Shown: one piece after another, positions 14,028-62,901 of the stretch
Position numbering within the stretch: the first letter of the stretch is position 1
Layout: the number at the start of each line of letters is the position of its first letter
Source of the DNA: a virus
Taxonomy: Duplodnaviria > Heunggongvirae > Uroviricota > Caudoviricetes
Virus record (IMG/VR): IMGVR_UViG_3300005613_000005
Span: 27,213 to 91,212 of that record
DNA: 64,000 nt
Reading direction: 5' to 3' (one strand)
Notes under the pieces: generated by a model
What the model saw: only the letters and a program-made list of their open reading frames with translations
Told to the model about the DNA's origin: nothing
The model's database searches: none
Position numbers and translations under genes: made by a program

Positions 14028-14040
14028 GACCGATCCGATA
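14028..14040 (+). promoter_or_regulatory. phage-specific upstream motif GACCGATCCGATA
   Basis: CCGATCCGA core 32 nt upstream of ATG 14060; recurs upstream of many + strand genes. Confidence 0.5.
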
Positions 14041-14059
14041 GGTCTGCTAGGAGGTGGTT

Positions 14060-14236
14060 ATGAAGAACACGATAGTCATAGACTACATGAGGCGAGAGTT
14101 CATACGGTTCGAGACCGAGAACGGCGACGTTCGCTACCTGTTGTACCTGCCGCTGGGAGCTGTCATAAGTCCTGACATAGACACTATCAAGGCGATCATT
14201 GAAGAGGATGTTGAGTATTTGAAGATCGCGGCTTAA
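14060..14236 (+). CDS. hypothetical protein
   Basis: GGAGGTGG SD; ATG 14060. Confidence 0.5.
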   Translation: MKNTIVIDYMRREFIRFETENGDVRYLLYLPLGAVISPDIDTIKAIIEEDVEYLKIAA

Positions 14237-14247
14237 GTTAAGGGTCG

Positions 14248-14445
14248 GTGATGTCTAACCCCCGTCACCGACCACTTTTTCTGGAACCGAAACGATCAGT
14301 TATCGATGATGAGACCTACAGAGAGTCTGGCTGCCACGAGCGTCGAGCAGCAATGGTAGCGATCTCTGACTGCGATAACGGGCAGGTGTCTTCGCAGCGC
14401 CTGCCCACCTTTTGGAGGGATTATGAAGATACCGATATGGATTAA
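14248..14445 (+). CDS. hypothetical protein
   Basis: 65-aa ORF. Confidence 0.4.
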   Translation: MMSNPRHRPLFLEPKRSVIDDETYRESGCHERRAAMVAISDCDNGQVSSQRLPTFWRDYEDTDMD

Positions 14446-14668
14446 AGTTAAAGACTGGAAGATCTATTTCTCGATGTGGGATACTCTGAACTGGGAGTCG
14501 ATAGACTACGATGAGCTGCACTTCTACTATGAGGATCCCAGATATTCCGTTCACGTGGTAGAATAATCTTATGGGTCGTGAGACCCAGCCGGACCAAAGT
14601 TCTGAGCCAGGAACTCGAGGACTTTACTGTCGGGCGCGTCCGGCGCCCGCAGGTTTCCCTTCAAAACA

Positions 14669-14684
14669 CTGACACTGTTACGCC
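14669..14684 (+). repeat. 16-nt motif CTGACACTGTTACGCC (copy 2)
   Basis: preceded by hairpin CGGGCGC-gtccg-GCGCCCG. Confidence 0.7.
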
Positions 14685-14697
14685 CCAGCCGCCGCTC

Positions 14698-14710
14698 GAC
14701 CGATCCGACC
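14698..14710 (+). promoter_or_regulatory. upstream motif GACCGATCCGACC
   Basis: 52 nt upstream of ATG 14750. Confidence 0.45.
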
Positions 14711-14749
14711 TCTAGTCAGAACAAACAAGAAACTTTAAAGGAGGTTAAC

Positions 14750-15256
14750 ATGAACCAGAGAGAAGCAGTCTACACCATCACACACTCCATCCTCAAAGAG
14801 CATGGGGTAACTTTCGAAGACGGGGACAACATCAGTTCCGTCATGACTGACGAGTACCGCAAGCAGATCATCGAAGCGATCGTCACCAGTTTCCAGTCCG
14901 GCAAGATCGACTTCAAAGATACTCAAGCGAACCAGGAAAAATTAGGTGACGTGAGCAAGCTCCGCAGCTATACTTCCGGTCTCGTGAGCAACTGGTTCCG
15001 CAAGGACCCTCGCTTCAACGGCAACGTCAAGTATGAAGCCAAGAACCCAGGTTCAAGGGCAGGTCAAGGCGACGCGCAGATGAAAAACTTAAGGCTCCTC
15101 AAGAAACAGTACGAGGGGACAGACAAGGTAAAAGACATAGACGCCGCCATAGCCGACCGCACCGCCGAGCTCAGGGCTGCCAAGGCCAAGAAAGTTGAAG
15201 TAGACTACACAGCGATACCCGAAGAACTCAAGGAAGCTCTCGGCATCACCGAATAG
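14750..15256 (+). CDS. MNQREAVY-family protein, paralog 2
   Basis: AAAGGAGG SD; ~60% identical to paralogs 1 and 3. Confidence 0.65.
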   Translation: MNQREAVYTITHSILKEHGVTFEDGDNISSVMTDEYRKQIIEAIVTSFQSGKIDFKDTQANQEKLGDVSKLRSYTSGLVSNWFRKDPRFNGNVKYEAKNPGSRAGQGDAQMKNLRLLKKQYEGTDKVKDIDAAIADRTAELRAAKAKKVEVDYTAIPEELKEALGITE

Positions 15257-15296
15257 GTCAAGATACAGCCGGCCGCAGGTCAACCGCTTGCGGCCA

Positions 15297-15312
15297 CTGA
15301 CACTGCTACGCC
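15297..15312 (+). repeat. 16-nt motif CTGACACTGCTACGCC (copy 3)
   Basis: preceded by hairpin GGCCGCA..TGCGGCC. Confidence 0.7.
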
Positions 15313-15595
15313 TACCGACCCCGGCCGCTCCCGGCTAGGGACCTGAGTGGGCCAACGTCGGTCAGCTCGCAGCCGCCCTCTCCATCTAATAATTTAAACA
15401 AAACGTACCCCAAAACCCCCTAGGGAAAGACGGACCTCCACCGATCCTCACCGTCCCTGACAGGGCTCCGGTGCTGGCCCTCGTCGGTCAAGTTCTTTCT
15501 AAGTTAGTTAGCTTGCAACAGTCTGTGAGCCGCCCCACCCCCGCCCCTTGCTGTCTTTTGATCTAATAAAATCAAGGGCTTACATGGCCTTATGC

Positions 15596-15610
15596 AACCG
15601 ATCCGAATTA
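15596..15610 (+). promoter_or_regulatory. upstream motif AACCGATCCGAATTA
   Basis: 30 nt upstream of ATG 15626. Confidence 0.45.
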
Positions 15611-15625
15611 TCCTCGAGGTGGTGC

Positions 15626-15901
15626 ATGAGTAAGCTGCAAGTAGTGGGAATAGAGTCCCTGGAAAGTCTACCACGAGTAGTTGCCTGGTGGCTGCGGTGT
15701 AGTTCAAGGTTAAGTTCTGTAGAAGCTGCTGCTAGGATTCCTGGTCCGAGGTTGCTGGAGAAGTTGTATGAGTTCTTGACCACGGTAGACGTAGAAATGT
15801 TTCGCAGCGGATATGGCTCTAGAAACCGTGATGCTAAAGCTTACGATGTTCACTTAGAGGTCTTGTTCGATGAGATTTTGAGGAGAAGGGTATTATGGTA
15901 G
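15626..15901 (+). CDS. hypothetical protein
   Basis: ORF trimmed to ATG 15626 downstream of motif and GAGGTGG. Confidence 0.45.
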   Translation: MSKLQVVGIESLESLPRVVAWWLRCSSRLSSVEAAARIPGPRLLEKLYEFLTTVDVEMFRSGYGSRNRDAKAYDVHLEVLFDEILRRRVLW

Positions 15902-16059
15902 AAACTTTATTCTGGGGCGTGTTGGTGTTGAGCTGTCTGGTGATAAGCAGATGCATCACCGGCCTGACGCTGTGCTGGTTTGAATACGGTCGTATAGGGA
16001 AGATGATAGACGACCGAGCGGTTTCAAAGGGAGAGTACCGTGAAAAAAATAGGGGCTGA
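15895..16059 (+). CDS. small hydrophobic protein (tentative)
   Basis: 54-aa ORF MVETLFWGVLVLSCLVISRCITGLTLCWF..; overlaps next gene start. Confidence 0.3.
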   Translation: MVETLFWGVLVLSCLVISRCITGLTLCWFEYGRIGKMIDDRAVSKGEYREKNRG

Positions 16060-16471
16060 AGATCTGAGAAAGTTGTCGCACCGGTATCAGGCTAAGTTCG
16101 CTGTGTTCTGTGCTGAGCAAGTTACTGAATACCTTGATGATGATACTAGAGAACCGGCCTTGAAAGCCATTGAGACCGCTAGACTGTGGTTAGATGGTAA
16201 AGCCACTGGAGAAGACTGTCGCAATGCTGCTGCTGCTGCTGCTGCTGCTGCTGATGCTGCTGCTTATGCTGCTGCTGATGCTGCTGCTGCTGCTGCTGCT
16301 GATGCTGCTGCTGCTGCTGATGCTTATGCTGCTGCTGCTGCTGATGCTGCTGCTTATGCTGCTGTCGATAATAAAAAAGCAACAGTCAAAGCTCAGTGGG
16401 ATTACTACTATGAGCTGCTCAATTTTGATACCAATTTTGAAAATATAGTTTTAGGGAGAGGGACACCGTGA
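16040..16471 (+). CDS. protein with internal Ala/Asp low-complexity repeat
   Basis: GTG start; unique N- and C-terminal regions flank a (GCT)n-encoded AAAAADAAAYAAA tract. Confidence 0.5.
   Translation: MKKIGAEDLRKLSHRYQAKFAVFCAEQVTEYLDDDTREPALKAIETARLWLDGKATGEDCRNAAAAAAAAADAAAYAAADAAAAAAADAAAAADAYAAAAADAAAYAAVDNKKATVKAQWDYYYELLNFDTNFENIVLGRGTP
16226..16365. repeat. imperfect (GCT)n trinucleotide microsatellite, ~140 bp
   Basis: GCTGCT... interrupted by GAT/TAT; encodes poly-Ala/Asp on + strand (poly-Gln/His on the other). Confidence 0.9.
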
Positions 16472-19009: not shown

Positions 19010-19147
19010 TCAGTTGACTGGAACCGAACCGAATAGTTGATAACGATAGGGATAACCCACCAAATACGGGTTCAGTCGTCGCTGAGGTAGGCGGAGAATT
19101 TGGGGCGACTGCGAAAGTTGATCGCGCCCCATTAACTTGGAGGAATT

Positions 19148-20216: not shown

Positions 20217-20345
20217 TTTCTTCATAATAACCTCCATGGGTCGGGGAAACAGAACCCCGACCACTTTTTCAAATTTAAAATTTTAAAAACCGAAACGACT
20301 ATCTATCGTCTGTTAGTTTTATTTATTTTTTTTAAAGGAGGTCAC

Positions 20346-20849
20346 ATGAACCAAAGAGAAGCTGTTTACACAGCAACGCACAACGTGCTGAAAGAGCACG
20401 GGATTGATTTTGAAGATTACGATAACATCAACGATGTTATGACCGACGATCTTCGCAAGCAGATCACAGCTATAATCTGTGAATCTTTTCAGTCTGGCGA
20501 CGTATCTTTTAAAGATACCCCTGCTAACCAGGCTAAACTCGAGAACGAATCAGGACTTAAAAGCTACGTGAGTGGTTTGGTAAGCAACTGGTTCCGCAAA
20601 GACAAACGTTTCAACGGGAACGTTAAGTACACAGCAAAGAATCCCGGATCAAGAGCTGGTCAGGGAGATCCCCAGATGAAGAACCTCAAGCTCTTAAGAA
20701 AACAGTACGAAGATGACACTGACAAAGTTAAAGAGATCGATGCTGCTATCACAGCTCGTACGGCTGAACTGAAAGTTGCCAAAGCTAAGAAAATTGAAGT
20801 TGATCTGGATGCTATTCCTGCTGAACTTAAAGAAACTCTCGGATTATAA
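20346..20849 (+). CDS. MNQREAVY-family protein, paralog 3
   Basis: AAAGGAGG SD; AT-rich version of the family. Confidence 0.65.
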   Translation: MNQREAVYTATHNVLKEHGIDFEDYDNINDVMTDDLRKQITAIICESFQSGDVSFKDTPANQAKLENESGLKSYVSGLVSNWFRKDKRFNGNVKYTAKNPGSRAGQGDPQMKNLKLLRKQYEDDTDKVKEIDAAITARTAELKVAKAKKIEVDLDAIPAELKETLGL

Positions 20850-20873
20850 TTCAATCTCCTTTCTTTGATATTG

Positions 20874-20908
20874 GGCGGATGTTTCGACGGCATCCGCCTT
20901 TGTTTTTT
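20874..20908 (+). terminator. rho-independent terminator
   Basis: GGCGGATG-tttcgacg-GCATCCGCC followed by TTTGTTTTTT. Confidence 0.6.
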
Positions 20909-20920
20909 ATGGTCATCAGA

Positions 20921-20936
20921 AACCGATCCGAAAAAT
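20921..20936 (+). promoter_or_regulatory. upstream motif AACCGATCCGAAAAAT
   Basis: 30 nt upstream of ATG 20951. Confidence 0.5.
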
Positions 20937-20950
20937 CGTAGAGGAAGTTT

Positions 20951-21289
20951 ATGAAGAACAAGTTAGCTTTACCAAAAGGTAAAAAAGTTAAGAGACCAGG
21001 TCGTCCACCAGATTACATATCCAAACGCGGCATCCCTTATTGGTATGGACCTGACTGGGTCCGTGATCTCAATGGTTCTATAGGTCGTATCAAACCTATA
21101 AAAAGAAAAAATGATTACGGTAACTGTGACGTCAGCCTGATGATGTTGTCTAAGACCGGTAACTTGAGTTTCATACTAGGCAGTATCCAGCGTGAGTTCA
21201 TCAGGTGGCATCAGGACCGTGAGATAGACTATATTTTATTAGGAATAGACGAAGATCAGATGCTGTTGACGGACTGGGAGTACGAATGA
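20951..21289 (+). CDS. hypothetical protein
   Basis: 112 aa. Confidence 0.5.
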   Translation: MKNKLALPKGKKVKRPGRPPDYISKRGIPYWYGPDWVRDLNGSIGRIKPIKRKNDYGNCDVSLMMLSKTGNLSFILGSIQREFIRWHQDREIDYILLGIDEDQMLLTDWEYE

Positions 21290-21804
21290 AGTTAAGTTTT
21301 CTAAGGATAGACAGTTTGTTGTGTCAGCTGATACAATTGTATCACGAAGGTATATCGGTCGACGACGTCGTGCTATACATGGCGAAATTAGGTGAACAAA
21401 TCTTAGAGACCAAACCCAACATCAATACCGGCTGGTGCGTTAGAAAGAATTTAAACCGAGTATGGGTCGTCAAAGGATTTTATCCTGATACTAAAGTACC
21501 GTTGAAGATAACGATCGTGGACGTCAACGTCAGGCACAGGGACAGCCAACACACCTATCCCATCCCATCATCTTATGTTATGAGCGTATATGTTGGCAGC
21601 AGGACCATCTCTCGGTATAATCATAATAGTAATAATTTCATTAAATTAGGTTCCACAGAGATCGCCCAGTTAGAAAAATACGCAGCCGATCGAGAAACGC
21701 GCAGATTGCTGGGTGCTGATGACATGGACGATAAATACAGTGTTAAAAAGCACAGGTTGATGACACCGAAAGGTTTGAAACCTTTGAGGAGGAAAGATGA
21801 CTGA
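21286..21804 (+). CDS. hypothetical protein
   Basis: 172 aa, ATGA-coupled. Confidence 0.5.
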   Translation: MKLSFLRIDSLLCQLIQLYHEGISVDDVVLYMAKLGEQILETKPNINTGWCVRKNLNRVWVVKGFYPDTKVPLKITIVDVNVRHRDSQHTYPIPSSYVMSVYVGSRTISRYNHNSNNFIKLGSTEIAQLEKYAADRETRRLLGADDMDDKYSVKKHRLMTPKGLKPLRRKDD

Positions 21805-22069
21805 TGAATTTAAAGTTTGTCCGGAATGCGGAGCTCAATTGATCGAGACCAAGAACTCAGACGATGGCATATTCGAGCATTTCATGGAGTGTTTAGAATG
21901 TGGCGAACGTTTCAACCTGACTCCACCGAGTTACGACGACGGAGACGATGAAGAAGAGTTTGTGATCAAACCTGAACTACAAGACTACACACAATACTCC
22001 GATTATCCTGAGTACTACGACGCTAATGAAGCTGCTGGTCTTTTAGAACTTGAGGAAGACGATGCCTGA
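21797..22069 (+). CDS. zinc-ribbon protein with acidic C-terminus
   Basis: CPECG..CLECG. Confidence 0.5.
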   Translation: MTDEFKVCPECGAQLIETKNSDDGIFEHFMECLECGERFNLTPPSYDDGDDEEEFVIKPELQDYTQYSDYPEYYDANEAAGLLELEEDDA

Positions 22070-22187
22070 CATGAACAACGATTCGAGATGGATCTGGGCT
22101 TTCATACTGTTATGGGCGATGTTGATATTCATCGCTGAACTAGTTATCGACCGATTCGAAATTTTATAAAACGTGTTGGGGGATTTG

Positions 22188-22892
22188 ATGAGTCAAAGAC
22201 TTATTAACCGAATGAGTCCGAGATATAAAGAAGTTTGTTATGAACTTTTAAAATATATCACTGACGAGTTGGGCAAGATGACTGACTTGAACGTGTACCA
22301 CGTGTACGTGGCTGGTGGTTCGGTGGTCGGTGAGGTCTATAACAAACCGTATAACGACGTAGACGTTTTTATGTCAGTCAACAACTTTGACATGACGCGC
22401 GATCATAACTTTGAAAAGTTTTTCGACAAACTCTGCAATGTCACGAACATCGCTAACAGTAAAGTCACGGAGATGTCTTTCATCAACGGTGATTACGGGC
22501 TTACTTCTATAGCCGCTATCAGGAAAATAGTTAATTTCCCGTACAAAGGATTCAACGTACAGGTTATACTCTGCAACGATGCTTTTCCTTATCGAGTATT
22601 TGATCTTTCGATATGCAGGATCGCCCTGCAATTAAATTGGCAGCGTAAAAAAATGGTATTGTTAAGAACATCTGAGTTTAAAGATTGCATGCGTAAGAAA
22701 AAGATATATATGTACGATACGGCAGCGAGCGTTGATCACTCGTTAAAGAGAATGTACAAATATCTGCAACGATTTACAGATTTCACACCGAAGTTCGAGG
22801 ACGAACTCTACGACCGAGAAGGAACAGAAGATAAGATAACTGATTTCATTAACAGTCTAGAGTTTGAGAAGATAGTCTTGAATGGAAGATAA
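22188..22892 (+). CDS. minimal nucleotidyltransferase-fold protein
   Basis: GGSVVGEVYNKPYNDVDVF fits hG[GS]-x9-13-DhD; start trimmed to ATG 22188 downstream of GACCGATTCGAA motif. Confidence 0.5.
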   Translation: MSQRLINRMSPRYKEVCYELLKYITDELGKMTDLNVYHVYVAGGSVVGEVYNKPYNDVDVFMSVNNFDMTRDHNFEKFFDKLCNVTNIANSKVTEMSFINGDYGLTSIAAIRKIVNFPYKGFNVQVILCNDAFPYRVFDLSICRIALQLNWQRKKMVLLRTSEFKDCMRKKKIYMYDTAASVDHSLKRMYKYLQRFTDFTPKFEDELYDREGTEDKITDFINSLEFEKIVLNGR

Positions 22893-24069: not shown

Positions 24070-24338
24070 TGAAAGAAAAGTTGCAAAAAATAGATTACAT
24101 TTATAAGGCAGACAATAAGTTTACTGAGTTCGATTTTGAACACATGGAGTACAAGATGTACAACGTCCCGTGCGTGTCTTTCATGGAGCATACGGATGAC
24201 GGACTAAAAGGATATCAGTCAAACGAGTTCGGCGGTGAAATGAGAACGTTTAACTCTACGATACAGAAAGCGTATGCTCAATGGTTGATAAACGAGTTTG
24301 AGAGAACGATACTTGGAGCAAACCATGAAACAATGTAG
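24066..24338 (+). CDS. EEIL-tail family protein, divergent member
   Basis: FDFEHM...KAYAQWLINEFERTIL. Confidence 0.45.
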   Translation: MMKEKLQKIDYIYKADNKFTEFDFEHMEYKMYNVPCVSFMEHTDDGLKGYQSNEFGGEMRTFNSTIQKAYAQWLINEFERTILGANHETM

Positions 24339-24864: not shown

Positions 24865-24880
24865 TACCGATCCGATTAAT
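24865..24880 (+). promoter_or_regulatory. upstream motif TACCGATCCGATTAAT
   Basis: 32 nt upstream of ATG 24897. Confidence 0.5.
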
Positions 24881-24896
24881 TATTGACGGAGGGTAT

Positions 24897-26535: not shown

Positions 26536-26711
26536 GAGATCCCAAGAGAATTAAACCATTCTTAGATGAATTAGAAAAATTATGGAAGAAATATCCTGAC
26601 ATGCGATTCTTTCAGTTGATAGACTCTATCATCATATGCAACGGAGATCTTTATTACAAGGAAGACGATGAGGCATTGAAGATAATAAAGAAAATAGACT
26701 TTAAACTTTGA
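26532..26711 (+). CDS. hypothetical protein
   Basis: 59 aa. Confidence 0.4.
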   Translation: MRDPKRIKPFLDELEKLWKKYPDMRFFQLIDSIIICNGDLYYKEDDEALKIIKKIDFKL

Positions 26712-26742
26712 CCGAATCGATCAGTATCTGTGAGGGATATAA

Positions 26743-30428: not shown

Positions 30429-30495
30429 TCTCCTCTCCGGCCAAAAAGTCAAACCGATACGAATAAAACAAGGATAATTTTATACTGGAGTAATC

Positions 30496-42516: not shown

Positions 42517-42672
42517 ATGAGTCTGATAATGGTTAGATTTTTAGTAATTATTGGGATGATTGTATTTTTCACTGTACTAGGAACCTCTATGGGATATGCT
42601 ATAGGGTATGAAAAAGCATATATCAAAGCTAAAACTAGTGAGCGAAGAAAAAAAGACCGTCGAAAAACCTAA
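42517..42672 (+). CDS. small membrane protein
   Basis: 51 aa with TM segment. Confidence 0.35.
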   Translation: MSLIMVRFLVIIGMIVFFTVLGTSMGYAIGYEKAYIKAKTSERRKKDRRKT

Positions 42673-42685
42673 AGAAGGAGAAAAC

Positions 42686-43540
42686 ATGAAATTATTTTTA
42701 TTATTGTGTATGCTGCTCGTGGGTACCAGCGCATTCGCCAAAAATGACAAGAAGCTCGACGTTGTTCTAAAAGATGATAACTTTTTTGCGGTTACTTCAG
42801 TCTTTACAGAACGTCTTTTAGAAGACTTCAATCGTAAAGTTATGACTTACGACGGCGATGAGCTCATCGTGTACATCGATAGCCCAGGAGGCAGCGTATT
42901 TTCTGTAGCGCGCATGGTATCTATAATGAGGTCATCTGAGGTTAAATTTACTTGCGTAGCTCGTTTCGCCGCTTCTGCCGCGTTCACGATGTTTCAAGCC
43001 TGCACCAACAGGTATATCTTGTACGATGGTATCATAATGCAGCACAATGCTTCTGGTATTTTCTGGGATGAATTTCCCAGGATCGAAACATTATATACCG
43101 CGATCAAAGATATAGTTACCGATATGGAAACACAGACAGCAAAAAGGATGAAGATGGAGTTCAAGGATTTCAAGGTGGCCATCAACAACAACCTGTGGTT
43201 GTCTAGGATCACCGCTCCAAAATACAACGCGATCGACGCCGTGATAAACACTATAAAATGCGAAGAGTCACTGATCAAGAAAACCATCACTAAAGCAGAA
43301 AGAAAATGCGGTTGGTTCAGCTGTTCGACTACCTATAAAAAATATTCAGCGTGCCCGCTGTTAACCCTTCCTCTTCCCGAACCTCCTAAAAAAGATAAAC
43401 CTGCTGATGATGGATGGTACGACGATGAATTCTACGATGGACATCCTTTATATCTTCCGTTTGATGAAAAAATCAACACGAACATCAAGAACTTCATGCA
43501 CATAGCCCCTTATACTATTAAAGATAAGATCATGAAATAA
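42686..43540 (+). CDS. secreted ClpP/S49-like serine protease paralog
   Basis: AAGGAG SD; signal peptide MKLFLLLCMLLVGTSAFA; LIVYIDSPGGSV...ARFAASAAFTMF...IIMQHN. Confidence 0.55.
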   Translation: MKLFLLLCMLLVGTSAFAKNDKKLDVVLKDDNFFAVTSVFTERLLEDFNRKVMTYDGDELIVYIDSPGGSVFSVARMVSIMRSSEVKFTCVARFAASAAFTMFQACTNRYILYDGIIMQHNASGIFWDEFPRIETLYTAIKDIVTDMETQTAKRMKMEFKDFKVAINNNLWLSRITAPKYNAIDAVINTIKCEESLIKKTITKAERKCGWFSCSTTYKKYSACPLLTLPLPEPPKKDKPADDGWYDDEFYDGHPLYLPFDEKINTNIKNFMHIAPYTIKDKIMK

Positions 43541-43571
43541 CTGATTAAAAATATCGAGCGGGTATAATAAA

Positions 43572-43600
43572 GGTACGGTTGAAAAATCGTACCTTTTTTT
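43572..43600 (+). terminator. rho-independent terminator
   Basis: GGTACGG..CGTACC + TTTTTTT. Confidence 0.5.
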
Positions 43601-43613
43601 ATATGGGGGATTT

Positions 43614-52086: not shown

Positions 52087-52087
52087 C

Positions 52088-52163: not shown

Positions 52164-52164
52164 T

Positions 52165-52244: not shown

Positions 52245-52245
52245 C

Positions 52246-52319: not shown

Positions 52320-52320
52320 G

Positions 52321-52394
52321 GGGCGGTTAGTGTAACGGCAGCACGTCGGCTTCCAAACCCGACAGTTTGGGTTCAAATCCTAAGCCGCCCGCCA
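52321..52394 (+). tRNA. tRNA-Trp(CCA)
   Basis: loop ttCCAaa. Confidence 0.7.
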
Positions 52395-52398
52395 ACGA

Positions 52399-52473
52399 GG
52401 TGCTATAGTGTAGTGGTTATCACGCCGGACTGTCTATCCGGAGACCGGGGTTCGATTCCCCGTAGCACCGCCA
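52399..52473 (+). tRNA. tRNA-Asp(GTC)
   Basis: acceptor GGTGCTA/TAGCACC, loop ctGTCta. Confidence 0.8.
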
Positions 52474-52492
52474 GATAAGGTATAATATCAAC

Positions 52493-52762
52493 GTGATAAC
52501 AACGATCAGTAAAAAAATTTTAGATATACTTTTAAACGTGACCGCAACGAACAGTCATGAAAAATGTCCTTACTGCGAACGAACTTTAAAGTACGACAGG
52601 ATAGTTGAGTGCGATATATACGAATCCGTTCATCCTACCAACTACGGTATGTGGTTTACGTTCACGTATAAAAAATGCCCGTGCAACTACGGCCCTTCTA
52701 CTGTAAGCAATCACTTGATCATCGATCATCTTCTATATAAATTAGGTATCAGGTACACGTAG
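52493..52762 (+). CDS. hypothetical Cys-rich protein inside tRNA array
   Basis: 89-aa ORF (CPYC...CPC); TATAAT upstream. Confidence 0.4.
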   Translation: MITTISKKILDILLNVTATNSHEKCPYCERTLKYDRIVECDIYESVHPTNYGMWFTFTYKKCPCNYGPSTVSNHLIIDHLLYKLGIRYT

Positions 52763-52800
52763 TCAAATTTGAGTTTTTAAACATATTTAAAGACCTAGAT

Positions 52801-52875
52801 GTGACTATAGTGTAACGGTCAGCACGAGAGGTTGTGGTCCTCTAAGTGAGGGTTCGAGTCCCTCTAGTCACCCCA
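52801..52875 (+). tRNA. tRNA-His(GTG)
   Basis: loop ttGTGgt; discriminator C73; no encoded G-1. Confidence 0.75.
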
Positions 52876-52944
52876 GGTCAATAAAAAATTTCCGATCGAA
52901 CGGGGGAAATCTGCAGCTTGGAAATTATACGGTATAATATGTAT

Positions 52945-53020
52945 GGCGGGATAGAGCAGTGGTCAGCTCACAGGTCTCATAAGCCTGGCGTCGGTGGTTC
53001 GAATCCACCTCCCGCTACCA
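52945..53020 (+). tRNA. tRNA-Met(CAT) (elongator-type, or Ile-lysidine)
   Basis: loop ctCATaa; lacks initiator hallmarks. Confidence 0.7.
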
Positions 53021-53826: not shown

Positions 53827-54266
53827 AAAAGAAAGCTATCATAGTTGACCTGGACGGAACCTTGTGCAACACCAAGCATCGCAACCATATACTGGAAACA
53901 AATCCCGGCAACTGGGACAAGTTCAACGAGGGTATCCCGTTTGATATCCCCAACCCGTGGTGCATGGAAATAGTAGAGAACTTCGCGAAAGAAGGGTATC
54001 ACATCCTTTTCGTCACCGGCAGAAACTCCAACACACACGACGCTACGGAGCAATGGTTAAGAACTTACCTGAACCCGACCGTCCAATGGGACCTGCACAT
54101 GAGACCCGACCACAACTACATCGCAGATACCATAATTAAAACAAACATCTATTTCACTAAGATACTGCCATTCTACGACGTGGTGTTCTGCGTCGACGAC
54201 AAACGTTCCATATGCGATCTGTGGAGAAGTTTAGGACTAGTAGCCCTTCACTGCGAAGATTACTGA
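53823..54266 (+). CDS. HAD-superfamily phosphatase (polynucleotide 3'-phosphatase / nucleotidase-like)
   Basis: motif I IIVDLDGTL (DxDGT); FVTGR; C-terminal CVDDK. Confidence 0.6.
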   Translation: MKKKAIIVDLDGTLCNTKHRNHILETNPGNWDKFNEGIPFDIPNPWCMEIVENFAKEGYHILFVTGRNSNTHDATEQWLRTYLNPTVQWDLHMRPDHNYIADTIIKTNIYFTKILPFYDVVFCVDDKRSICDLWRSLGLVALHCEDY

Positions 54267-55042
54267 TTCTCGGGGATTATATCTTCGCCCGACTCGTCGA
54301 TGATTATGTCGGGATCAAACTCTTCTTTCTTAGGTACTGTAACATCTATCTTGACTATCCCTTTACGGTTCGTACGCTTATATAAATCTTTGATCAGTTT
54401 CTTGAGTTCTTTTTCGTCGGGCGCATTCGACATCTTAGCTATCCTTGATCTTCGTAAGTTACCCCGCTTCTTGGGTTGAATTATGTTGTCGGCGATTCCC
54501 AACGACACTGCTTCACTCGCGGTTATGTAGACGTCACGCTGCAAGATGTCGTTCCAGAAACTTTCCGGCATATGTGAGTTCTCTGCGAATAGTTTGTCAA
54601 GCTTGCTTTGCAGGTCCTTAGTTGATTTAGCTTCGATCTGTACGTCGGTATGCTTACCCTCTATCTCGTCCAACCCGTCGTGCAACATTATCTCAGTGTT
54701 GGGATATAAGTTCCTTTCATCACATATCGCCATAAGCCAGGTCGCCGCTGATGCTATCTGTCCGCCGCCGAAAAACTTAACCTGACAAGGGCAAGACAGT
54801 ATGACGTCGACCAGACGCAGCATCGACGTGGCACTACCACCGCACGACTGTATATGTAACTCTATAGGTTTCTTAGGATTGTCTGATACTAATAGGTGGA
54901 TAGCTCGAACAGCTTTCTCAACGGTGTTCCAACTGAACTCTTCGTGTCCCTCATCGTTCAACACGCCAAAATATATGCGCCGCATCTTACGATCAAAGTT
55001 TCTCTCAAAAATCTCCTCGACACGGCTGTTTTTATCAGACAT
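54260..55042 (-). CDS. ClpP-like serine protease, third paralog
   Basis: start trimmed to M27 (MSDKNSRV) which has AGGAG + TGGTATAAT upstream; IELHIQSCGGSATSMLRLVDVI...TEIMLHDG. Confidence 0.55.
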   Translation of the reverse strand: MSDKNSRVEEIFERNFDRKMRRIYFGVLNDEGHEEFSWNTVEKAVRAIHLLVSDNPKKPIELHIQSCGGSATSMLRLVDVILSCPCQVKFFGGGQIASAATWLMAICDERNLYPNTEIMLHDGLDEIEGKHTDVQIEAKSTKDLQSKLDKLFAENSHMPESFWNDILQRDVYITASEAVSLGIADNIIQPKKRGNLRRSRIAKMSNAPDEKELKKLIKDLYKRTNRKGIVKIDVTVPKKEEFDPDIIIDESGEDIIPENQ

Positions 55043-55070: not shown

Positions 55071-55142
55071 CCGTGAACGTAGTATGCTATCGTGCGAGTT
55101 TCAATAACCGATTCGATCAATATTCAGAATTGAGGTGCATGT

Positions 55143-55397
55143 ATGAGCAAAGATACTAAAAAGAAAGTTGAAGAATATCTAGCAAAAGGCGGAAAGATAA
55201 CCAAATGTCCGTCAGAGCCAACACCGGAGAAAGAGATAACTATGAAGCCAAATCACTCTGGACTTGCTAACATAATGACTTTATTAGAAGGCGCTTTATA
55301 CTACGGTGAGCACGCTCGCAAGAAGAAAAAGAGGGATTTATCAAAGATCGATCTCAGTACTATACCTGAAAATCTAAAGAAAAAACTAGGAATATGA
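55143..55397 (+). CDS. hypothetical protein
   Basis: 84 aa; AACCGATTCGATCAA motif variant upstream. Confidence 0.45.
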   Translation: MSKDTKKKVEEYLAKGGKITKCPSEPTPEKEITMKPNHSGLANIMTLLEGALYYGEHARKKKKRDLSKIDLSTIPENLKKKLGI

Positions 55398-56303: not shown

Positions 56304-56320
56304 GAACCGATCCGATTAAT
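56304..56320 (+). promoter_or_regulatory. upstream motif GAACCGATCCGATTAAT
   Basis: 51 nt upstream of ATG 56355. Confidence 0.5.
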
Positions 56321-56354
56321 GATCGTGAGATTTCAATAATATAAAGGAGGAATA

Positions 56355-57503
56355 ATGAAACCAACTAAAATGTTCGATATCCTGGATCTTGCCTGGGAGG
56401 CCAGGATGAAAGACAGGGTTTTTAATCCCCTGTTCACAGGCGAAGCTGGACTTGGAAAATCTGCTATCGCTCAGCAATGGGTAGCTAAGATGCGCAAGAA
56501 ATACCCGGATTTCGTGTTTTTAGACCTGCGTATCGCTTACATGGAAGCGCCGGACATGATCGGTTTTCCGGAAGCGGACGTCGTCGGCGGTGTTAAGAGA
56601 ACCGTCCACAACATACCGGAGTTCTGGCCCGATGCCGAAGTTAATCCTGATCAAAAAGGGTTGATACTATTTGAAGAACCAAATCGCGGAACTACCGGCG
56701 TCATGAACTGTCTGATGCAGATATTGACTGATCGTAAAGTTCATAAACTCAAGATACCCGACGGTATCATGTTCGCGGCGTGCATCAACCCTGACTCAGC
56801 AGAGTACGATGTCAACCACATGGACGCGGCGCTGAAGAACAGGTTCGAAGAGTTCATAGTCGAGTACGATCATATGGCTTTCATGTCCTACATAGACAAG
56901 CAGAAATGGCACGACGATATCCAAAGGTTCGTCGGCAGTGGTACCTGGATCTATAAACCAACGAAAGAGATCAAGGAAAACGGTAAGTATATATCGCCAA
57001 GAACTTGGGAAAAAGTTGAAGCTGCTCTCGCAGCCGGAGTAAAAGAGGATCGCGGACTGCACAGGACGGTCATGGGCTCTATCCTTGGTAGGGACATCGG
57101 CAATGAGTTCCACAAGTTCTGCTACGAAGAAGCTCCTGTTACGGCTGAAGAACTGCTCGAGAACAAAGAAAAAGCATTGAAAAGATTAAAGAAACAATCT
57201 GACCCGAAACACTATAAAGGCGACATGATCGCCGTTACGGTAGAGTCGATATCAAACATGTATGGTGGTCTCCCAGATACTTGTCCAAAGGACAAGATAG
57301 ACGAGAATCTTATGGCTGAGGTCGCCAAGATAATTCCTTCTGATCAAGCGATCAACCTGTTGAAACAATGTGGTTTCAAACAAAAAGGTGTTAATATCTC
57401 CGCGTACTTCAAGGAGTTCACAAAACGTCATCCAGAACTGGTGACAGTACTGCGCGGTAACATAAAGATAGATCGTGCGCTTAACAAAAAAACAGATAAA
57501 TAA
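56355..57503 (+). CDS. MoxR-like AAA+ ATPase
   Basis: Walker A GEAGLGKS, Walker B LILFEE, sensor NRGTT, MoxR-type C-terminal region. Confidence 0.7.
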   Translation: MKPTKMFDILDLAWEARMKDRVFNPLFTGEAGLGKSAIAQQWVAKMRKKYPDFVFLDLRIAYMEAPDMIGFPEADVVGGVKRTVHNIPEFWPDAEVNPDQKGLILFEEPNRGTTGVMNCLMQILTDRKVHKLKIPDGIMFAACINPDSAEYDVNHMDAALKNRFEEFIVEYDHMAFMSYIDKQKWHDDIQRFVGSGTWIYKPTKEIKENGKYISPRTWEKVEAALAAGVKEDRGLHRTVMGSILGRDIGNEFHKFCYEEAPVTAEELLENKEKALKRLKKQSDPKHYKGDMIAVTVESISNMYGGLPDTCPKDKIDENLMAEVAKIIPSDQAINLLKQCGFKQKGVNISAYFKEFTKRHPELVTVLRGNIKIDRALNKKTDK

Positions 57504-57569: not shown

Positions 57570-59051
57570 ATGGCAGATAAAAAGAGACGTATCAGGATTA
57601 CCAAAGAGTTATTGGACGATGAGTTCGTCGAAGTACACGAGCAAGAACAATGTCTTGCGACGACGTTGTACGAGACTACACGATCCCACCCGTTCATGGG
57701 AGCGATACTTCAGTGCTTAAACATAACGTACACTCACGTTCTCCCTACAGCTGGCGTTACGTTCAACGCAGATGCTAAACGCTGGGATCTTTGGATAAAC
57801 CCTAAGTTTTTTTGCCACAAGTTGAACGAAACCCGCGGCGCCAGCGGAAAAAAGATAGGCGATAAAGCAAGAAAAGCCGTTCTATTACATGAACTTTACC
57901 ATATAACAAACAAGCATCCAATGAGGGTGCCTTTCATAAAACTATCGCCGCAGAAACGGCAGCTCATGAACATAGCCGCTGACATGGCGATCAACCAGTT
58001 CATACAGCATCTTCCAAACGGATGTAGCCAATGCCCACCAAAAGAAGCTTTAATGATGGGAGCGGAATGTAAGAACAAGAACTGTTGCGGCAGCACCATA
58101 GACGTCAAAGATTACTATGACGAAGACGACAAGGGCAACAAAAAACCGTGGCCGGAAGGCGAGACCATGGAAAACTACTACGACCGGTTGCTCAGGAGAA
58201 TCCAAGAAGCTGAAGAAAGTGGATGCTGTCAGACCTGCGGCGGCGATGGCATGGAGAAAGACGAGAACGGCGAGAACACCGGCAAGGTTTGTCCTGACTG
58301 CAAGGGTTCGGGAAAAGGGAAAGGAATGCCTAGTACATTGGATTCTCATGACTGGGACGCGTCTGGGGACGAAAGAGATATGTTAGAAGCAACAGAGGAT
58401 CTCGTTAAACGTGCCATGATCAAACAAAGGATGTCCTACGACGACCTTCCAGGTTCCATGAAAGACCTACTAGAAGACATCAAAGCTAGAAAAGCAGAAT
58501 TAGATTATAGAGGTGAGATACTCGCTGCAATCAAGAAATCAGCCTCAGGCCACGAGCGCAAGCATACCTGGTCCAGGAAATCGCGAAGATTCGGCACAAA
58601 AGCTCCTGGAACTAAGGTCGGTGACCTACCAAAACTATCGTTTTACTTGGACACGTCGGGATCAATATCCATAGAAGAGCTTAACGAGTTTCTTGACATA
58701 GTTGATAATTTTCTCAGAGCTGGTTCCAGAAAATGTCACCTGAACATGTTCCATGCCTCTAACTATTTCAGCGAGGAGTACAAACTAGGACGCAGGATCA
58801 AGCGCGAGGAGATAGAGACGGGTGGAACTTGTCTGGAGAGTTCCATGCGCGACGTGTGCAAGCGACGCCCTGACCTGGCAATATTCGTCACGGACGGTTG
58901 CTACGGCGACATCGACATAACCGGTTGGCTACCGCCAGGCATGAACTTCCCGCAGTGCCTGTTCATAATCAGCAGGGAAGGGGATGCTAAACACCCGCTG
59001 GAACGGTTCGGGAAAACGATCAAGATACCAACTACCACCAACGTGAAATAA
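57570..59051 (+). CDS. VWA-domain protein with N-terminal putative metallopeptidase (HExxH) domain, MoxR partner
   Basis: LLHELYH (HExxH) in N-terminal domain; Cys-rich linker; VWA MIDAS DTSGS, TDG. Confidence 0.65.
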   Translation: MADKKRRIRITKELLDDEFVEVHEQEQCLATTLYETTRSHPFMGAILQCLNITYTHVLPTAGVTFNADAKRWDLWINPKFFCHKLNETRGASGKKIGDKARKAVLLHELYHITNKHPMRVPFIKLSPQKRQLMNIAADMAINQFIQHLPNGCSQCPPKEALMMGAECKNKNCCGSTIDVKDYYDEDDKGNKKPWPEGETMENYYDRLLRRIQEAEESGCCQTCGGDGMEKDENGENTGKVCPDCKGSGKGKGMPSTLDSHDWDASGDERDMLEATEDLVKRAMIKQRMSYDDLPGSMKDLLEDIKARKAELDYRGEILAAIKKSASGHERKHTWSRKSRRFGTKAPGTKVGDLPKLSFYLDTSGSISIEELNEFLDIVDNFLRAGSRKCHLNMFHASNYFSEEYKLGRRIKREEIETGGTCLESSMRDVCKRRPDLAIFVTDGCYGDIDITGWLPPGMNFPQCLFIISREGDAKHPLERFGKTIKIPTTTNVK

Positions 59052-59741: not shown

Positions 59742-59760
59742 GAACCGATCCGATAATTAA
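59742..59760 (+). promoter_or_regulatory. upstream motif GAACCGATCCGATAATTAA
   Basis: follows structured element, precedes terminator-like hairpin and small ORF. Confidence 0.45.
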
Positions 59761-59791
59761 TCATAGAGATAACAGACCTCCTTGAGAAGCG

Positions 59792-59824
59792 CCGGAGGGT
59801 CCTTATACGGGCCTTCCGGTTTTT
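59792..59824 (+). terminator. rho-independent terminator
   Basis: CCGGAGGG..CCTTCCGG + TTTTT. Confidence 0.55.
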
Positions 59825-60232: not shown

Positions 60233-60865
60233 TTGATGGTCAATATTATAGTAGCAAGTTTTATAAGTTTTGTTCTTGGAATAATACTAACGTTGATTTT
60301 TGTCTACATCATGAGCATGAGACAATTGAAAAAACTGAAACAGGAAGCAGAAAAGATCGACAAAAAAATTAAAGAGACCATCAAGAAAGTTAAGAGTGAA
60401 GCTAATAACCTAATAGATCAACTGCACAACGTCAACACTAAGCAACAACAAATTTTAGAAACTCTGCATTCACCGAATCAGGGTGTTCTGCACGCCAAAC
60501 ACAAGGGAGAGTTGGTCGACGAATATCAGAAACTGGAGGTCGAAAAGATCAATATCCTGGAAGATATAGTCTACAACAAGAAGATAGACGAGACCGTCAA
60601 GATAAACGAAGACGGACAGATTAAAGAGATGAAACTATCTGAGTTTTTAAAAAGGATAAAAGAGGTCGCTGCTGCAAATAACCCACATTACTCCGGCTAC
60701 GATGAAGACAAACAGCTGAAAGAATTTATCAACAACCTTGAGAAATCTAAAAAGAAAGAGCCAGTGAGCAAAAACGGCGGTGTCAAAAGACACGGAAACT
60801 TTTTTGTCATAGACGGTGGTAAAGACAGTTTCGACGACGACAACGGCAGTGGAGGTAACGCATGA
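60233..60865 (+). CDS. membrane-anchored coiled-coil protein
   Basis: N-terminal TM, central coiled coil. Confidence 0.5.
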   Translation: MMVNIIVASFISFVLGIILTLIFVYIMSMRQLKKLKQEAEKIDKKIKETIKKVKSEANNLIDQLHNVNTKQQQILETLHSPNQGVLHAKHKGELVDEYQKLEVEKINILEDIVYNKKIDETVKINEDGQIKEMKLSEFLKRIKEVAAANNPHYSGYDEDKQLKEFINNLEKSKKKEPVSKNGGVKRHGNFFVIDGGKDSFDDDNGSGGNA

Positions 60866-61041
60866 TATATCTGATGTGTCTATGGTTATTTAGTTTAACA
60901 TTTTCATGCTACATATCAAAACAAAACAAACATAAAAATTGGTGGTTCGTTGGAGTTGTAATAGGTAATCTGGCGTTTGTCGCCACCATTGCCATGATGT
61001 GTGCCGCATTGATTATAGTGAGTAAATTTACAGGTAGTTGA
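60862..61041 (+). CDS. small membrane protein
   Basis: two TM segments. Confidence 0.35.
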   Translation: MIYLMCLWLFSLTFSCYISKQNKHKNWWFVGVVIGNLAFVATIAMMCAALIIVSKFTGS

Positions 61042-61042
61042 T

Positions 61043-61360
61043 ATGTCAAACACCATAACAGTTCCTAAATACGATCACGGAGATCGAGTCATAGTCAACG
61101 GGTACCACGGTGAGGTAACATCGTGGCAGTACAACCTAGACTATTACTACTATGAATATAAGATAGCATTCGACGTAGACGGACTAATAGGTGCAAACGG
61201 ATGGTTTCCAGAAGGTAGCTTAGAATCGCTCAGCAAAAACCGTCCGTGGACGAGAACTGTCCAGTATGCGGGACCAAATGGAAATGCACGATATCGCCGG
61301 TCGTCGGAGAAGTATGGAAAGATTGTCCAAAATGCAAGCAGACCAAAGAAAAAATTTTAG
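61043..61360 (+). CDS. hypothetical protein
   Basis: 105 aa. Confidence 0.45.
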   Translation: MSNTITVPKYDHGDRVIVNGYHGEVTSWQYNLDYYYYEYKIAFDVDGLIGANGWFPEGSLESLSKNRPWTRTVQYAGPNGNARYRRSSEKYGKIVQNASRPKKKF

Positions 61361-61369
61361 GAGGTTGAG

Positions 61370-61741
61370 ATGACCATTAAAGAGCTCTATAGAATACTAG
61401 AAACACACATTAAAACTAAACCAAAATACTGTCTAGAATCCATTAAAGTAAGGATACCGATAGCTAAACACAGCATCGGACCAAAGGCTTCAGTAGAAGT
61501 TACTAACGCCTGGTGCGGTTTTGACTGGAACTCTGACTCGTTCTTCGTAGCACCTGAAAAAGATCTGACACCGAAGTCAGAGAACGAGGAGATATGGGAC
61601 GATGCGCGTGAACTGTTGATGTTCATAGCGACTAAACCCGTTAAGAAAGTAACCTATGAAGTTAGACAAGCTCGAAGAATTTTTGAGAGACTAAATATAG
61701 ACTACATGCAATATCAAAGCATATTTCACAAGGAGGATTAG
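61370..61741 (+). CDS. hypothetical protein
   Basis: GGAGG SD. Confidence 0.45.
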   Translation: MTIKELYRILETHIKTKPKYCLESIKVRIPIAKHSIGPKASVEVTNAWCGFDWNSDSFFVAPEKDLTPKSENEEIWDDARELLMFIATKPVKKVTYEVRQARRIFERLNIDYMQYQSIFHKED

Positions 61742-62029
61742 ATGACTGATGTACAGAAACGTTTCGTTGAACTTGAGAAGAAAAAAGTTGAGATCAAGAA
61801 ATACTTCGATAACCTGATTGAAGCTACAGAAGCGGTAGCACAGGAAATCGGTATTGAGGGATCATTTCAGGACGAAGAGGGAACGGTCTATCAGATCGTG
61901 ATTCCCGAAGGTCGTTTCGTCAAGTTTGAGAAGATCGGCTATGTTCGCACTCGCAGGATCGACGAGAAAAAAGGTGATCTCTCTTTGACAAAAGCCAGAG
62001 AACTGGGTTACGTCGTAGAAGGTAAATGA
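61742..62029 (+). CDS. hypothetical protein
   Basis: 95 aa. Confidence 0.45.
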   Translation: MTDVQKRFVELEKKKVEIKKYFDNLIEATEAVAQEIGIEGSFQDEEGTVYQIVIPEGRFVKFEKIGYVRTRRIDEKKGDLSLTKARELGYVVEGK

Positions 62030-62289
62030 TGTCCAACATGCTGGAGAAAGATTGGTCCAAGCTGACCGACGCTGAACTGCAGTACGAGCTGGAACTATGC
62101 GAGCAAGTACTTCACGGCCACGAGTTCTTTGACGGTAAAGAGATGATAAAGATGGTCGGTCTTGAAGATTCTAACTATAAATTAAAAAACGGAAAAGACA
62201 TCTTCTTCAACGCCAGAAAAGTATGGAGGCAGAGGTTAGCGAACGCACAGCGTGAACTGTTAGAACGAAACTTATTAAAAGAGGATTAA
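62026..62289 (+). CDS. hypothetical protein
   Basis: 87 aa. Confidence 0.45.
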   Translation: MMSNMLEKDWSKLTDAELQYELELCEQVLHGHEFFDGKEMIKMVGLEDSNYKLKNGKDIFFNARKVWRQRLANAQRELLERNLLKED

Positions 62290-62290
62290 G

Positions 62291-62722
62291 GTGGGATGCG
62301 ACATACACATGTACATAGAGTACAGACACAACGGTTGTGACTGGCAAGCAGACAAGCACCACGTCGTCAGATCAGAAGACGGTGATTGTCCGCGCGACGT
62401 AGATGCCGCTTGTAGAAAATACGCTTTGTTCGCTGAACTGGCGAATGTCAGGGGATATGGTAACCGTGACATAGATCCACTTGGAATTCCTAAAGACGCC
62501 TCAAAAACTGTTAAAAAAGCCGTGGAATACTGGAGAGACGACGGACACTCGCACTCGTGGATAAGTTTAGAAGACTTTGAAAAGATCTTTAAAACTAAGG
62601 GATGGTACGATGATTCTGTTACTACGACTAAAGCGTTTTTCGATTGGCAAACGAGTCCTGGTAGTTATGGCGGATACCAAGATATCATAAATTACTGTCG
62701 CCGTAGTTATGGCGGATACTAA
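62291..62722 (+). CDS. hypothetical protein truncated by stop inside a 42-bp tandem duplication
   Basis: frame continues ~25 codons past the TAA in duplicated copy. Confidence 0.45.
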   Translation: MGCDIHMYIEYRHNGCDWQADKHHVVRSEDGDCPRDVDAACRKYALFAELANVRGYGNRDIDPLGIPKDASKTVKKAVEYWRDDGHSHSWISLEDFEKIFKTKGWYDDSVTTTKAFFDWQTSPGSYGGYQDIINYCRRSYGGY

Positions 62723-62744
62723 GATATCATAAATTACTGTCGCC
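62661..62744. repeat. 42-bp tandem direct duplication (2 copies, 1 mismatch)
   Basis: GTAGTTATGGCGGATAC(C/T)AAGATATCATAAATTACTGTCGCC x2; the C->T creates TAA. Confidence 0.9.
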
Positions 62745-62901
62745 AGCTCAAAGAACAAGAAGAAGTTATCGACTCTATTATCCTAGGAAAAGGTGCACAA
62801 GGAAAAGTTGACGTACGACTCGTATTTTTCTTCGATAGCTAGAACGATATAACCGAATCGAAATTTTATCGAGAAAATATAAAACGATTACAGGAGTATA
62901 C

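Follow-up and report, generated by a model that had tools for sequence, protein, structure and literature searches.

Which RNA polymerase, and which sigma factor, reads a short motif that recurs in front of gene after gene in the genome of an uncultured tailed phage? The window analysed here, a stretch of 64,000 nucleotides (positions 27,213 to 91,212 of the IMG/VR record IMGVR_UViG_3300005613_000005; Caudoviricetes), contains many copies of the motif ACCGATCCGAT, which an earlier note had proposed to be a phage-specific middle or late promoter read by a phage-encoded sigma factor, activator or RNA polymerase. The window is nearly identical to a portion of a 157,173-bp metagenome contig in ENA (ERZ27256772, k141_2301005), of which we inspected 91 kb (58%), comprising the window, both flanks and a further 10-kb walk. 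Our analysis supports the phage-specific promoter reading and sharpens it: ACCGATCCGAT appears to define a real promoter class consisting of a -10 element only and resembling promoters of the sigma-28 type. We consider it likely that these promoters serve a bacterial RNA polymerase carrying a sigma-28/FliA-class domain, which in related phages would be supplied by a small phage-encoded sigma factor, hereinafter the mini-sigma.

A strand-specific motif and its predicted start site

The strict core CCGATCCGA occurs seven times in the window, always on the + strand (14030, 14700, 15598, 20923, 24867, 56307 and 59745), against 0.35 copies expected, and none of 100 shuffles reached seven. These are the seven sites listed previously, where a longer motif had placed the coordinates 2-3 nt upstream. 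The relaxed core ACCGANNCGA has 18 copies on the + strand and none on the - strand (1.56 expected; largest shuffle 6), which bears out the claim that such recurrence is unlikely by chance. Five of the six variants noted earlier (22149, 26710, 30451, 55106 and 62851) fit this core; the sixth, at 8861 (AACCGTCGAT), does not, and since it adjoins a TATAAT followed by 6 nt and an ATG, it belongs to the host-type promoter class described below. Further copies that had been missed lie at 13250, 13395, 14286, 19023 and 20289, plus one just beyond the window at 68415, and over the inspected 91 kb the motif is found 21 times on the + strand and once on the other. The copies are concentrated outside genes, with 13 of the 18 in sequence not covered by rough open reading frame (ORF) calls, which makes up 13% of the window (binomial p=1.7e-8); of the five 'coding' copies, that at 13627 alone is clearly within a gene, the other four being at a stop codon or in small ORFs of doubtful status. 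The motif is thus not equally frequent in coding DNA, nor does it stand at random distances from start codons. Most copies precede an ATG with a Shine-Dalgarno (SD) sequence by 29-57 nt, so that the 30-52 nt formerly given for every case very nearly holds, except at 59744, where there is no ORF, and at 14286 and 19023, which have leaders of ~120 nt. Likewise as previously observed, terminator hairpins stand just upstream of some copies (20239-20262 and 20873-20899; 14240-14275 by eye); the motif lies 5-27 nt 3' of these intrinsic terminators, and two copies occupy divergent intergenic regions, settings that leave no room for another upstream promoter. A scan of viral contigs with the exact 16-mer returned 11 matches with one motif copy each, which is the chance level.

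All plausible sites are confined to a + strand block of small, auxiliary and nucleotide-metabolism genes that extends from ~8.8 to ~72.8 kb. It is flanked by a tail/structural block on the - strand at 0.5-8.8 kb of the window and by a second - strand structural block, which the 10-kb walk reached after the + strand block had ended; both structural blocks are free of motif copies. The motif therefore serves the auxiliary and nucleotide-metabolism block and not the structural genes, and of the former 'middle or late' assignment the late part falls away.

Related loci (cited below by L numbers) were fetched with the MoxR-type ATPase gene at 56355-57503 as bait, yielding 4 viral and 80 metagenome loci. 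They belong to a widespread, wholly uncultured family of 115-177 kb myophages (~160 kb) from freshwater, sediment and soil; a megablast of 18 kb found no match among cultured phages, and the tail sheath is matched best by that of Myxococcus phage Mx1, with 30% identity. In about 80 of these loci AC[AC]GA..CGA occurs 123 times on the coding strand versus 19 times on the other. Despite diverged flanks, the motif recurs at orthologous places, namely upstream of the VWA gene, of a gene for an MG(V/L/I)FDDK protein and of the ATPase (L012, L032, L033, L034, L048, L054, L059, L079, L081, L087 and L098), and single genomes hold both ACCGA and ACAGA versions.

An alignment of ~115 non-redundant sites from this phage and its relatives, numbered from the first A of ACCGA as 0, allowed the transcription start to be predicted. 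Position +18 is a pyrimidine in 92 of the 115 sites and G in only one, and +19 is a purine in 98; both columns lie outside the search pattern and are unlike their neighbours, and the window sites alone display the same step (13 of 17 and 15 of 17, respectively). An ATG spike falls exactly at +19, in nine sites that all lack an SD sequence and all open long ORFs, and SD 4-mers are nearly absent from 0 to +18, rise from +19 and peak at +22-25. Together, the pyrimidine/purine step, the SD-less ATGs and the onset of SD sequences point to a promoter with its start at +19, and this comparative mapping places the predicted start sites close to the motif. A calibration comes from seven places in the same genome where 6-7 nt separate TGGTATAAT or TGTTATAAT from a downstream ATG, so that leaderless mRNAs would be normal in this phage and the last base of the -10 hexamer would be -7. 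Renumbered from a start at +19, the motif has CGA(T/A)(A/T)A at -12..-7, T/C at -13, AC(C/A)GA at -19..-15 and a weak C-T-T-n-A at -24..-20.

This arrangement invites comparison with sigma-28 promoters, whose consensus is TAAAGTTT-N11-GCCGATAA (PMC2859248). In the open complex of Pseudomonas aeruginosa sigma-28 at fliC the -10 box is (-15)GCCGATAA(-8), with R97 contacting the GC of the extended -10, R80 contacting -12G, D87 near -13C and A-11 flipped out (PMC12784957). The window consensus TCCGAT(A/T)A at -14..-7 matches GCCGATAA at seven of eight positions. The -35 region, by contrast with the sigma-28 consensus, has no conserved element in 17 window sites or 115 family sites, and a TAAA(GTTT) box is not conserved either 11 nt (between octamers) or 15 nt 5' of the -10 box.

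The TGGTATAAT elements, which the earlier note had set apart as host-like promoters, are indeed a separate and real class, with 15 copies of TGNTATAAT against 3.5 expected. The form TG(G/T)TATAAT plus exactly 6 nt plus ATG is found at 1223, 30199, 37229 and 59071 on the + strand and at 35925 on the - strand, which suggests that this phage makes frequent use of leaderless mRNAs transcribed from host-type extended -10 promoters. Combined with an SD sequence, promoters of this type also precede structural genes at 4681(-) and 8830(-), and TGGTATAAT promoters lie upstream of transfer RNA (tRNA) arrays at 48706, 51299 and 50590(-).

A truncated sigma factor in related phages

All ORFs of the fetched loci were screened locally with phmmer, using sigma-70, FliA and gp55 probes that served as bait only; the conclusions on the mini-sigma rest on the Pfam, PDB and fold results that followed. 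The FliA bait matched small ORFs in 14 loci, encoding proteins of 110-165 aa, and Pfam Sigma70_r2 (PF04542) was detected in 11 of 12 members. A profile search of PDB gave WhiG/FliA as the best match (~2e-17), limited to FliA residues 18-112, with RpoD/RpoS at ~1e-6. An AlphaFold model (predicted local distance difference test score 86) shows four helices and, after them, a disordered tail rich in Pro and Glu, and its top Foldseek matches are Bacillus subtilis SigD, WhiG and P. aeruginosa sigma-28 (root-mean-square deviation 2.2 A, 37% identity), at a TM score on the target of ~0.3 with about a third of each target covered. Accordingly modelled, the mini-sigma comprises a FliA-type domain 2 and the first sigma-3 helix and lacks the sigma finger and domain 4; domains 3 and 4 of a full sigma factor (~240 aa) are absent, the match ending near FliA residue 112. 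A sigma factor without the -35-binding domain fits an extended -10 promoter without a -35 box. The subfamily with C-G-A in its promoters has retained the equivalents of R80 and D87, with a lysine at the R97 position; the D87-equivalent residue is conserved together with CGA and varies where CGA is lost. A few database members of the family carry a FliA label from the Joint Genome Institute (JGI), and limited literature searches found no description of a truncated sigma family of this kind or of an ACCGA promoter. Scanning bacterial genomes with the mini-sigma produced only one 19.8-kb contig of a metagenome-assembled genome, labelled Bacilli, too slight a basis for assigning a host.

The mini-sigma gene lies between a ClpP-like gene and the DNA ligase gene, on the strand opposite the motif-driven genes, and a conserved gene of 104-108 aa always adjoins this slot. 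In at least 13 distinct relatives it is preceded by TGGTATAAT plus 6 nt plus ATG. In the closest large relative (L114:7643-8519, - strand) it overlaps the end of a same-strand HNH endonuclease gene, so that the sigma cassette may be mobile.

Motif and mini-sigma occur together. All of the 10 viral loci retrieved with the mini-sigma alone, in a scan with the four closest members, carry the motif, with 47 copies on the strand opposite the sigma gene versus 5 on the same strand. Among ligase- or ATPase-anchored loci with a visible slot, motif density is 0.2-0.6 per kb in sigma-positive members of the main subfamily, and the motif is absent from the sigma-negative loci L022, L058, L050, L073, L124 and L131. 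The window's exact 10-mer ACCGATCCGA is also present in the sigma-encoding L067, L102 and L103. Sigma subfamilies, moreover, track promoter variants: the loci of group B (L082, L088, L089, L093, L094 and L097) encode a different mini-sigma subfamily and have the promoter T-TTCCGA-WTC-(T/A)AAT, with the pyrimidine/purine step 19 nt downstream in six of eight sites (by eye), and the promoter of L014 is ttAAA-ACCGATT-ATATAAAT, a form (ACCGATT-ATATAAAT) that L014 alone has. From these variants the family-invariant part reduces to (A/T)CCGAWT(C) at -19..-12, with -11..-7 varying by lineage.

In the mechanism that we propose, host sigma-70 would transcribe the mini-sigma gene from its host-type TGGTATAAT promoter, and the mini-sigma, as the probable reader of the motif, would redirect core polymerase to the ~20 ACCGA promoters of the + strand block, where AC(C/A)GA (-19..-15) would lengthen the -10 box upstream to an unusual extent. 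Contact with ACCGA may be made by the tail or by the first helix of sigma-3.

Weighing the candidate readers

Several observations weigh against this proposal. The -10 box would lie one base nearer the start than in the P. aeruginosa fliC complex, and of the canonical GC of the extended -10 only half is retained, the window having TC and the relatives WT. The start site itself is predicted from sequence statistics, and the helix or tail is only a candidate for the partner of ACCGA. Some sigma-positive relatives (group C: L108 and L112) have no clear motif, and k-mer discovery in the group C sigma loci likewise gave no clear promoter motif. Above all, the window genome is the one motif-rich genome in which the sigma slot is empty, and cleanly filled: the stop codon (42516) of the 108-aa gene abuts a 51-aa gene and a ClpP-like paralog. 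Over 81 kb (window plus flanks), sigma hidden Markov models and a sensitive, permissive tblastn for sigma remnants found no sigma gene, the tblastn giving nothing below E = 0.15. No sigma gene was detected in the next 10 kb of the contig either, making a total of 91 of 157 kb, and two profile searches of a 5.8-billion-protein collection recovered 26 and 49 family members, none of them from this phage's contig. Pfam and PHROG scans of ~140 window and flank proteins had no sigma factor, RNA polymerase or obvious transcription factor among the matches listed (25 of 31 families in the case of one window scan). Two roughly syntenic - strand ORFs behind TG.TATAAT promoters were considered and set aside as not sigma-like (48113-48595 and 50501-50845), the latter being a 25-aa ORF before two tRNAs. 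As for the slot itself, the window has three ClpP-like protease genes (41481-42182 and 42686-43540 on the + strand, 54260-55042 on the - strand), of which 42686-43540 encodes a signal peptide and stands where relatives have the mini-sigma.

Of the readers suggested earlier, then, the evidence points to a sigma factor of the FliA/sigma-28 type, while its gene was not found in 91 kb of this phage. It is plausible that the gene has been relocated to the other 66 kb (record positions 1-49,130 and 140,440-157,173) or that the contig is incomplete, given the 10-mer shared with sigma-encoding relatives, the HNH neighbour in L114 and a contig 8-20 kb shorter than those of large relatives (165-177 kb); the reader in this phage would then be a mini-sigma of its own. 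The missing gene nonetheless makes the window's own genome a concrete puzzle, and it is here that the first alternative enters: the mini-sigma could have been lost, and the same ~20 promoters be read by the full-length flagellar sigma FliA of the host without a -35 box, helped by ACCGA. The empty slot and the lack of a sigma gene in 91 of 157 kb and in the database searches speak for it, as does the fact that the window's TCCGATAA is nearer the canonical GCCGATAA (seven of eight, with C kept at the extended -10) than the relatives' TCGATAA. Sigma-28 normally needs a -35 element, a need on which the -35 point mutants of aer bear (PMC2859248). The window sites have no TAAA-type -35 at the required spacing, and positions -14..-11 of the motif frame, counted from the first A of ACCGA, are unconserved; the promoters are, besides, the same as in sigma-encoding relatives. 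We therefore regard a host FliA reader as unlikely. Were it true, the motility state of the host would gate the expression of phage genes over a 60-kb block, and sigma-28-class domains would have in AC(C/A)GA (-19..-15) a new promoter element that replaces the -35 box.

A different view would make the motif an operator, bound by an activator or repressor of the phage that works with host sigma-70 polymerase. The core can be written as a tandem half-repeat (CCGAT-CCGAT) and is followed by A/T-rich sequence with a conserved T. The hexamer at -12..-7, however, is CGAWWA, with G where sigma-70 requires A-11, and nothing resembling TTGACA is present; matches to a generic sigma-70 promoter show no enrichment and do not fall on the motif sites. 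A repeat spacing of 6 bp and a strict single orientation are atypical of dimeric regulators, and it is the sigma factor that co-varies with the motif, whereas no candidate regulator does. An operator is accordingly quite improbable.

Slightly less probable still is a role in RNA, as a site of processing or of binding by a translational regulator within the leader of transcripts begun further upstream, even though the motif is strand-specific, lies just 5' of ribosome-binding sites and in several window copies includes a short CGA...TCG inverted repeat. Several copies stand 5-27 nt past intrinsic terminators, the nine SD-less ATGs at +19 are sensible only if the mRNA starts there, the pyrimidine/purine step seen throughout the family accounts for the TCG, which has no compensatory changes, one copy precedes a non-coding hairpin RNA, and the motif co-occurs with the sigma gene. 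Least probable of all is a promoter for a phage-encoded RNA polymerase, single-subunit or non-canonical multisubunit: a compact -35-less motif of ~20 bits near the start recalls phage polymerase promoters, and 66 kb of the genome lie outside the inspected part, but no polymerase domain is among the matches listed for the 119 window ORFs or the flanks, the sequence matches a known sigma -10 box, and a bacterial enzyme would account for the pyrimidine/purine start and for a geometry that the TGGTATAAT class also has.

Promoter copies, neighbouring features and known systems

The predicted promoters and the slot are collected in Table 1.

Table 1. Predicted ACCGA promoters of the window, with the genes that each would drive, and the sigma slot.
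Feature	Coordinates	Strand	Sequence	Context
Promoter	14029..14048	+	ACCGATCCGATAGGT	Predicted start 14048; 58-aa gene 14060-14236; exact core
Promoter	14286..14305	+	ACCGAAACGA	5 nt after hairpin and T-run terminator; leader of ~120 nt to ATG 14424
Promoter	14699..14718	+	ACCGATCCGA	Paralog gene 14750-15256; exact core
Promoter	15597..15616	+	ACCGATCCGAATTAT	Gene 15626-15901; SD starts at predicted start site
Promoter (weaker candidate)	19023..19042	+	ACCGAACCGA	Long structured leader (~120 nt) to ATG 19148
Promoter	20289..20308	+	ACCGAAACGA	27 nt after terminator 20239-20262; paralog gene 20346-20849
Promoter	20922..20941	+	ACCGATCCGAAAAAT	23 nt after terminator 20873-20899; gene 20951-22069
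Promoter	22150..22169	+	ACCGATTCGA	Nucleotidyltransferase-like gene 22188-22892 and downstream genes
Promoter	24866..24885	+	ACCGATCCGATTAAT	Gene 24897-25115 and downstream genes; exact core
Promoter	26711..26730	+	ACCGAATCGA	LigD-type phosphoesterase gene 26743-27153
Promoter	30453..30472	+	ACCGATACGA	S8 protease gene 30496-31167
Promoter	55107..55126	+	ACCGATTCGATCAAT	Divergent intergenic region; gene 55143-55397
Promoter	56306..56325	+	AACCGATCCGATTAAT	Divergent intergenic region; MoxR-type ATPase 56355-57503 and VWA protein 57570-59051
Promoter and ORF-less transcript	59744..59823	+	AACCGATCCGATAAT	~60-nt RNA ending in hairpin and U-run
Promoter	62852..62871	+	ACCGAATCGA	Gene 62902-63624
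Doubtful copy	13250..13269	+	ACCGACACGA	GC-rich island; 47 nt before 38-aa ORF with SD
Possible copy	13395..13414	+	ACCGAGACGA	55 nt before paralog gene 13450-13962; C/G at +18/+19
Slot of relatives' mini-sigma (opposite strand)	42517..43613	+		Between 108-aa gene and DNA ligase; here 51-aa gene and ClpP-like paralog

Individual copies add some detail. The promoter at 14029 follows a GC-rich hairpin at a gene end, with the SD sequence beginning at ~+20, and that at 55107 is the sole conserved element available to the gene 55143-55397, whose neighbour is oppositely oriented. At 59744 the predicted start is also the beginning of a candidate non-coding RNA or leader (59763-59823; dG -29.4 kcal/mol, z -3.8) that had no match in Rfam; the arrangement of motif and ORF-less hairpin is found again at L012:13376 and L048:5059. 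The orthologs of gene 62902-63624 in L012 and L048 have an ATG exactly at +19 and no SD sequence. The copy at 19023 has A/T at +18/+19 and so lacks the pyrimidine/purine step; that at 13250 lacks it too and may be a chance occurrence in 52% GC DNA.

That DNA is part of a GC-rich island at 12000-16000 (52% versus ~40% GC), which looks like a set of recently acquired or duplicated cassettes. It holds the first two of three paralogous genes (MNQREAVY...; 13450-13962, 14750-15256 and 20346-20849) that have no family match, each preceded by a motif copy. A second repeated element, TGACACTGCTACGC(C), has four + strand copies (14003, 14670, 15298 and 30415; 0.33 expected), each placed after a GC-rich hairpin where a gene ends; three of them are 25-37 nt 5' of an ACCGA promoter. 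The element is similar to the 3' acceptor end of a tRNA at L012:3095-3110. Between a TGACACTGCTACGCC copy and the 15597 promoter, some 300 nt of GC-rich sequence without an ORF (15260-15596) could be a structured RNA, with no Rfam match at the gathering threshold. Within gene 16040-16471, a (TGCTGC) tract of 23 copies (16225-16364, +) encodes a poly-Ala/Asp stretch in an Imm5-like protein, and similar GCTGCT-rich repeats are present in L058 and L069. Just before the 62852 promoter, a tandem duplication of a 42-bp unit (62661-62744, +; 97% match) spans the end of gene 62309-62722.

Elsewhere the window is phage-like in character, with 22 tRNA genes (48837-53020) in an array that encloses a bacterial class A RNase P RNA gene (49047-49346, +; 179.6 bits). 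An 879-aa ORF entertained as a polymerase was rejected; it is a ribonucleotide reductase (37337-39976, +) containing an intein with a LAGLIDADG endonuclease domain, to which homologs align in two pieces covering ~62% of the protein. Pfam matches to a dATP/dGTP diphosphohydrolase N-terminal domain (MazZ-type, 8e-31) and a radical SAM enzyme (24325-24849) hint at modified DNA bases.

Phage sigma factors with promoter classes of their own are a known principle, exemplified by T4 and SPO1. What the present system would add is a promoter class and start geometry defined from sequence alone for an uncultured phage family of ~160 kb, and with it a simple pattern by which transcription units and leaderless genes can be recognized when genomes of the family are annotated. 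The conservation of AC(C/A)GA at -19..-15 suggests a new upstream element standing in for the -35 box.

Among known systems, the closest is that of sigma-28 (FliA/SigD/WhiG). The -10 box is shared, (T/C)CGATAA at -14..-7 corresponding to GCCGATAA at -15..-8, and in the relatives both sequence and fold mark the sigma as a clear homolog of FliA domain 2 that keeps the residues contacting -12G and -13C and a basic residue at the R97 position; yet the phage promoters lack the -35 TAAA and have the additional AC(C/A)GA, the sigma lacks domains 3.1-4, and the promoters are phage-borne and would drive phage metabolism genes rather than flagellar ones. Extended -10 (TGnTATAAT) promoters of sigma-70 are likewise independent of a -35 box and depend on extra contacts just 5' of the -10 hexamer, whereas the ACCGA class has no TG at -15/-14 and no TATAAT, has G at -11 within the hexamer CGAWWA, and extends upstream to -19 instead of -15. 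The gp28 and gp33/gp34 cascade of Bacillus phage SPO1 follows the same logic, from host sigma to phage sigma gene to a polymerase redirected to distinct phage promoters, with the difference that its promoters are bipartite (-35 and -10), its sigmas are full-length for -35 recognition, and the sequences are unrelated. In phage T4, gp55 is a small sigma equivalent to domain 2 that reads -10-only late promoters (TATAAATA, no -35) on host core polymerase, with gp33 as a required co-activator together with the DNA-loaded sliding clamp. Mention of gp55 is made in PMC9429907. The pairing of a domain-2-only sigma with a -10-only promoter is common to T4 and to the relatives of the window phage; TATAAATA is unrelated to the ACCGA motif, the ACCGA promoters serve non-structural genes, and gp55 is barely alignable to any sigma, whereas the mini-sigma is recognisably derived from FliA. 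The latter would be a natural minimal sigma factor, of domain 2 and one helix, and a possible intermediate toward extreme forms such as gp55. The ACCGA system accordingly falls outside the canonical sigma-28 class, having no -35 box and a sigma without domains 3-4, and outside the T4 late class, from which it differs in sequence and in not driving late genes.

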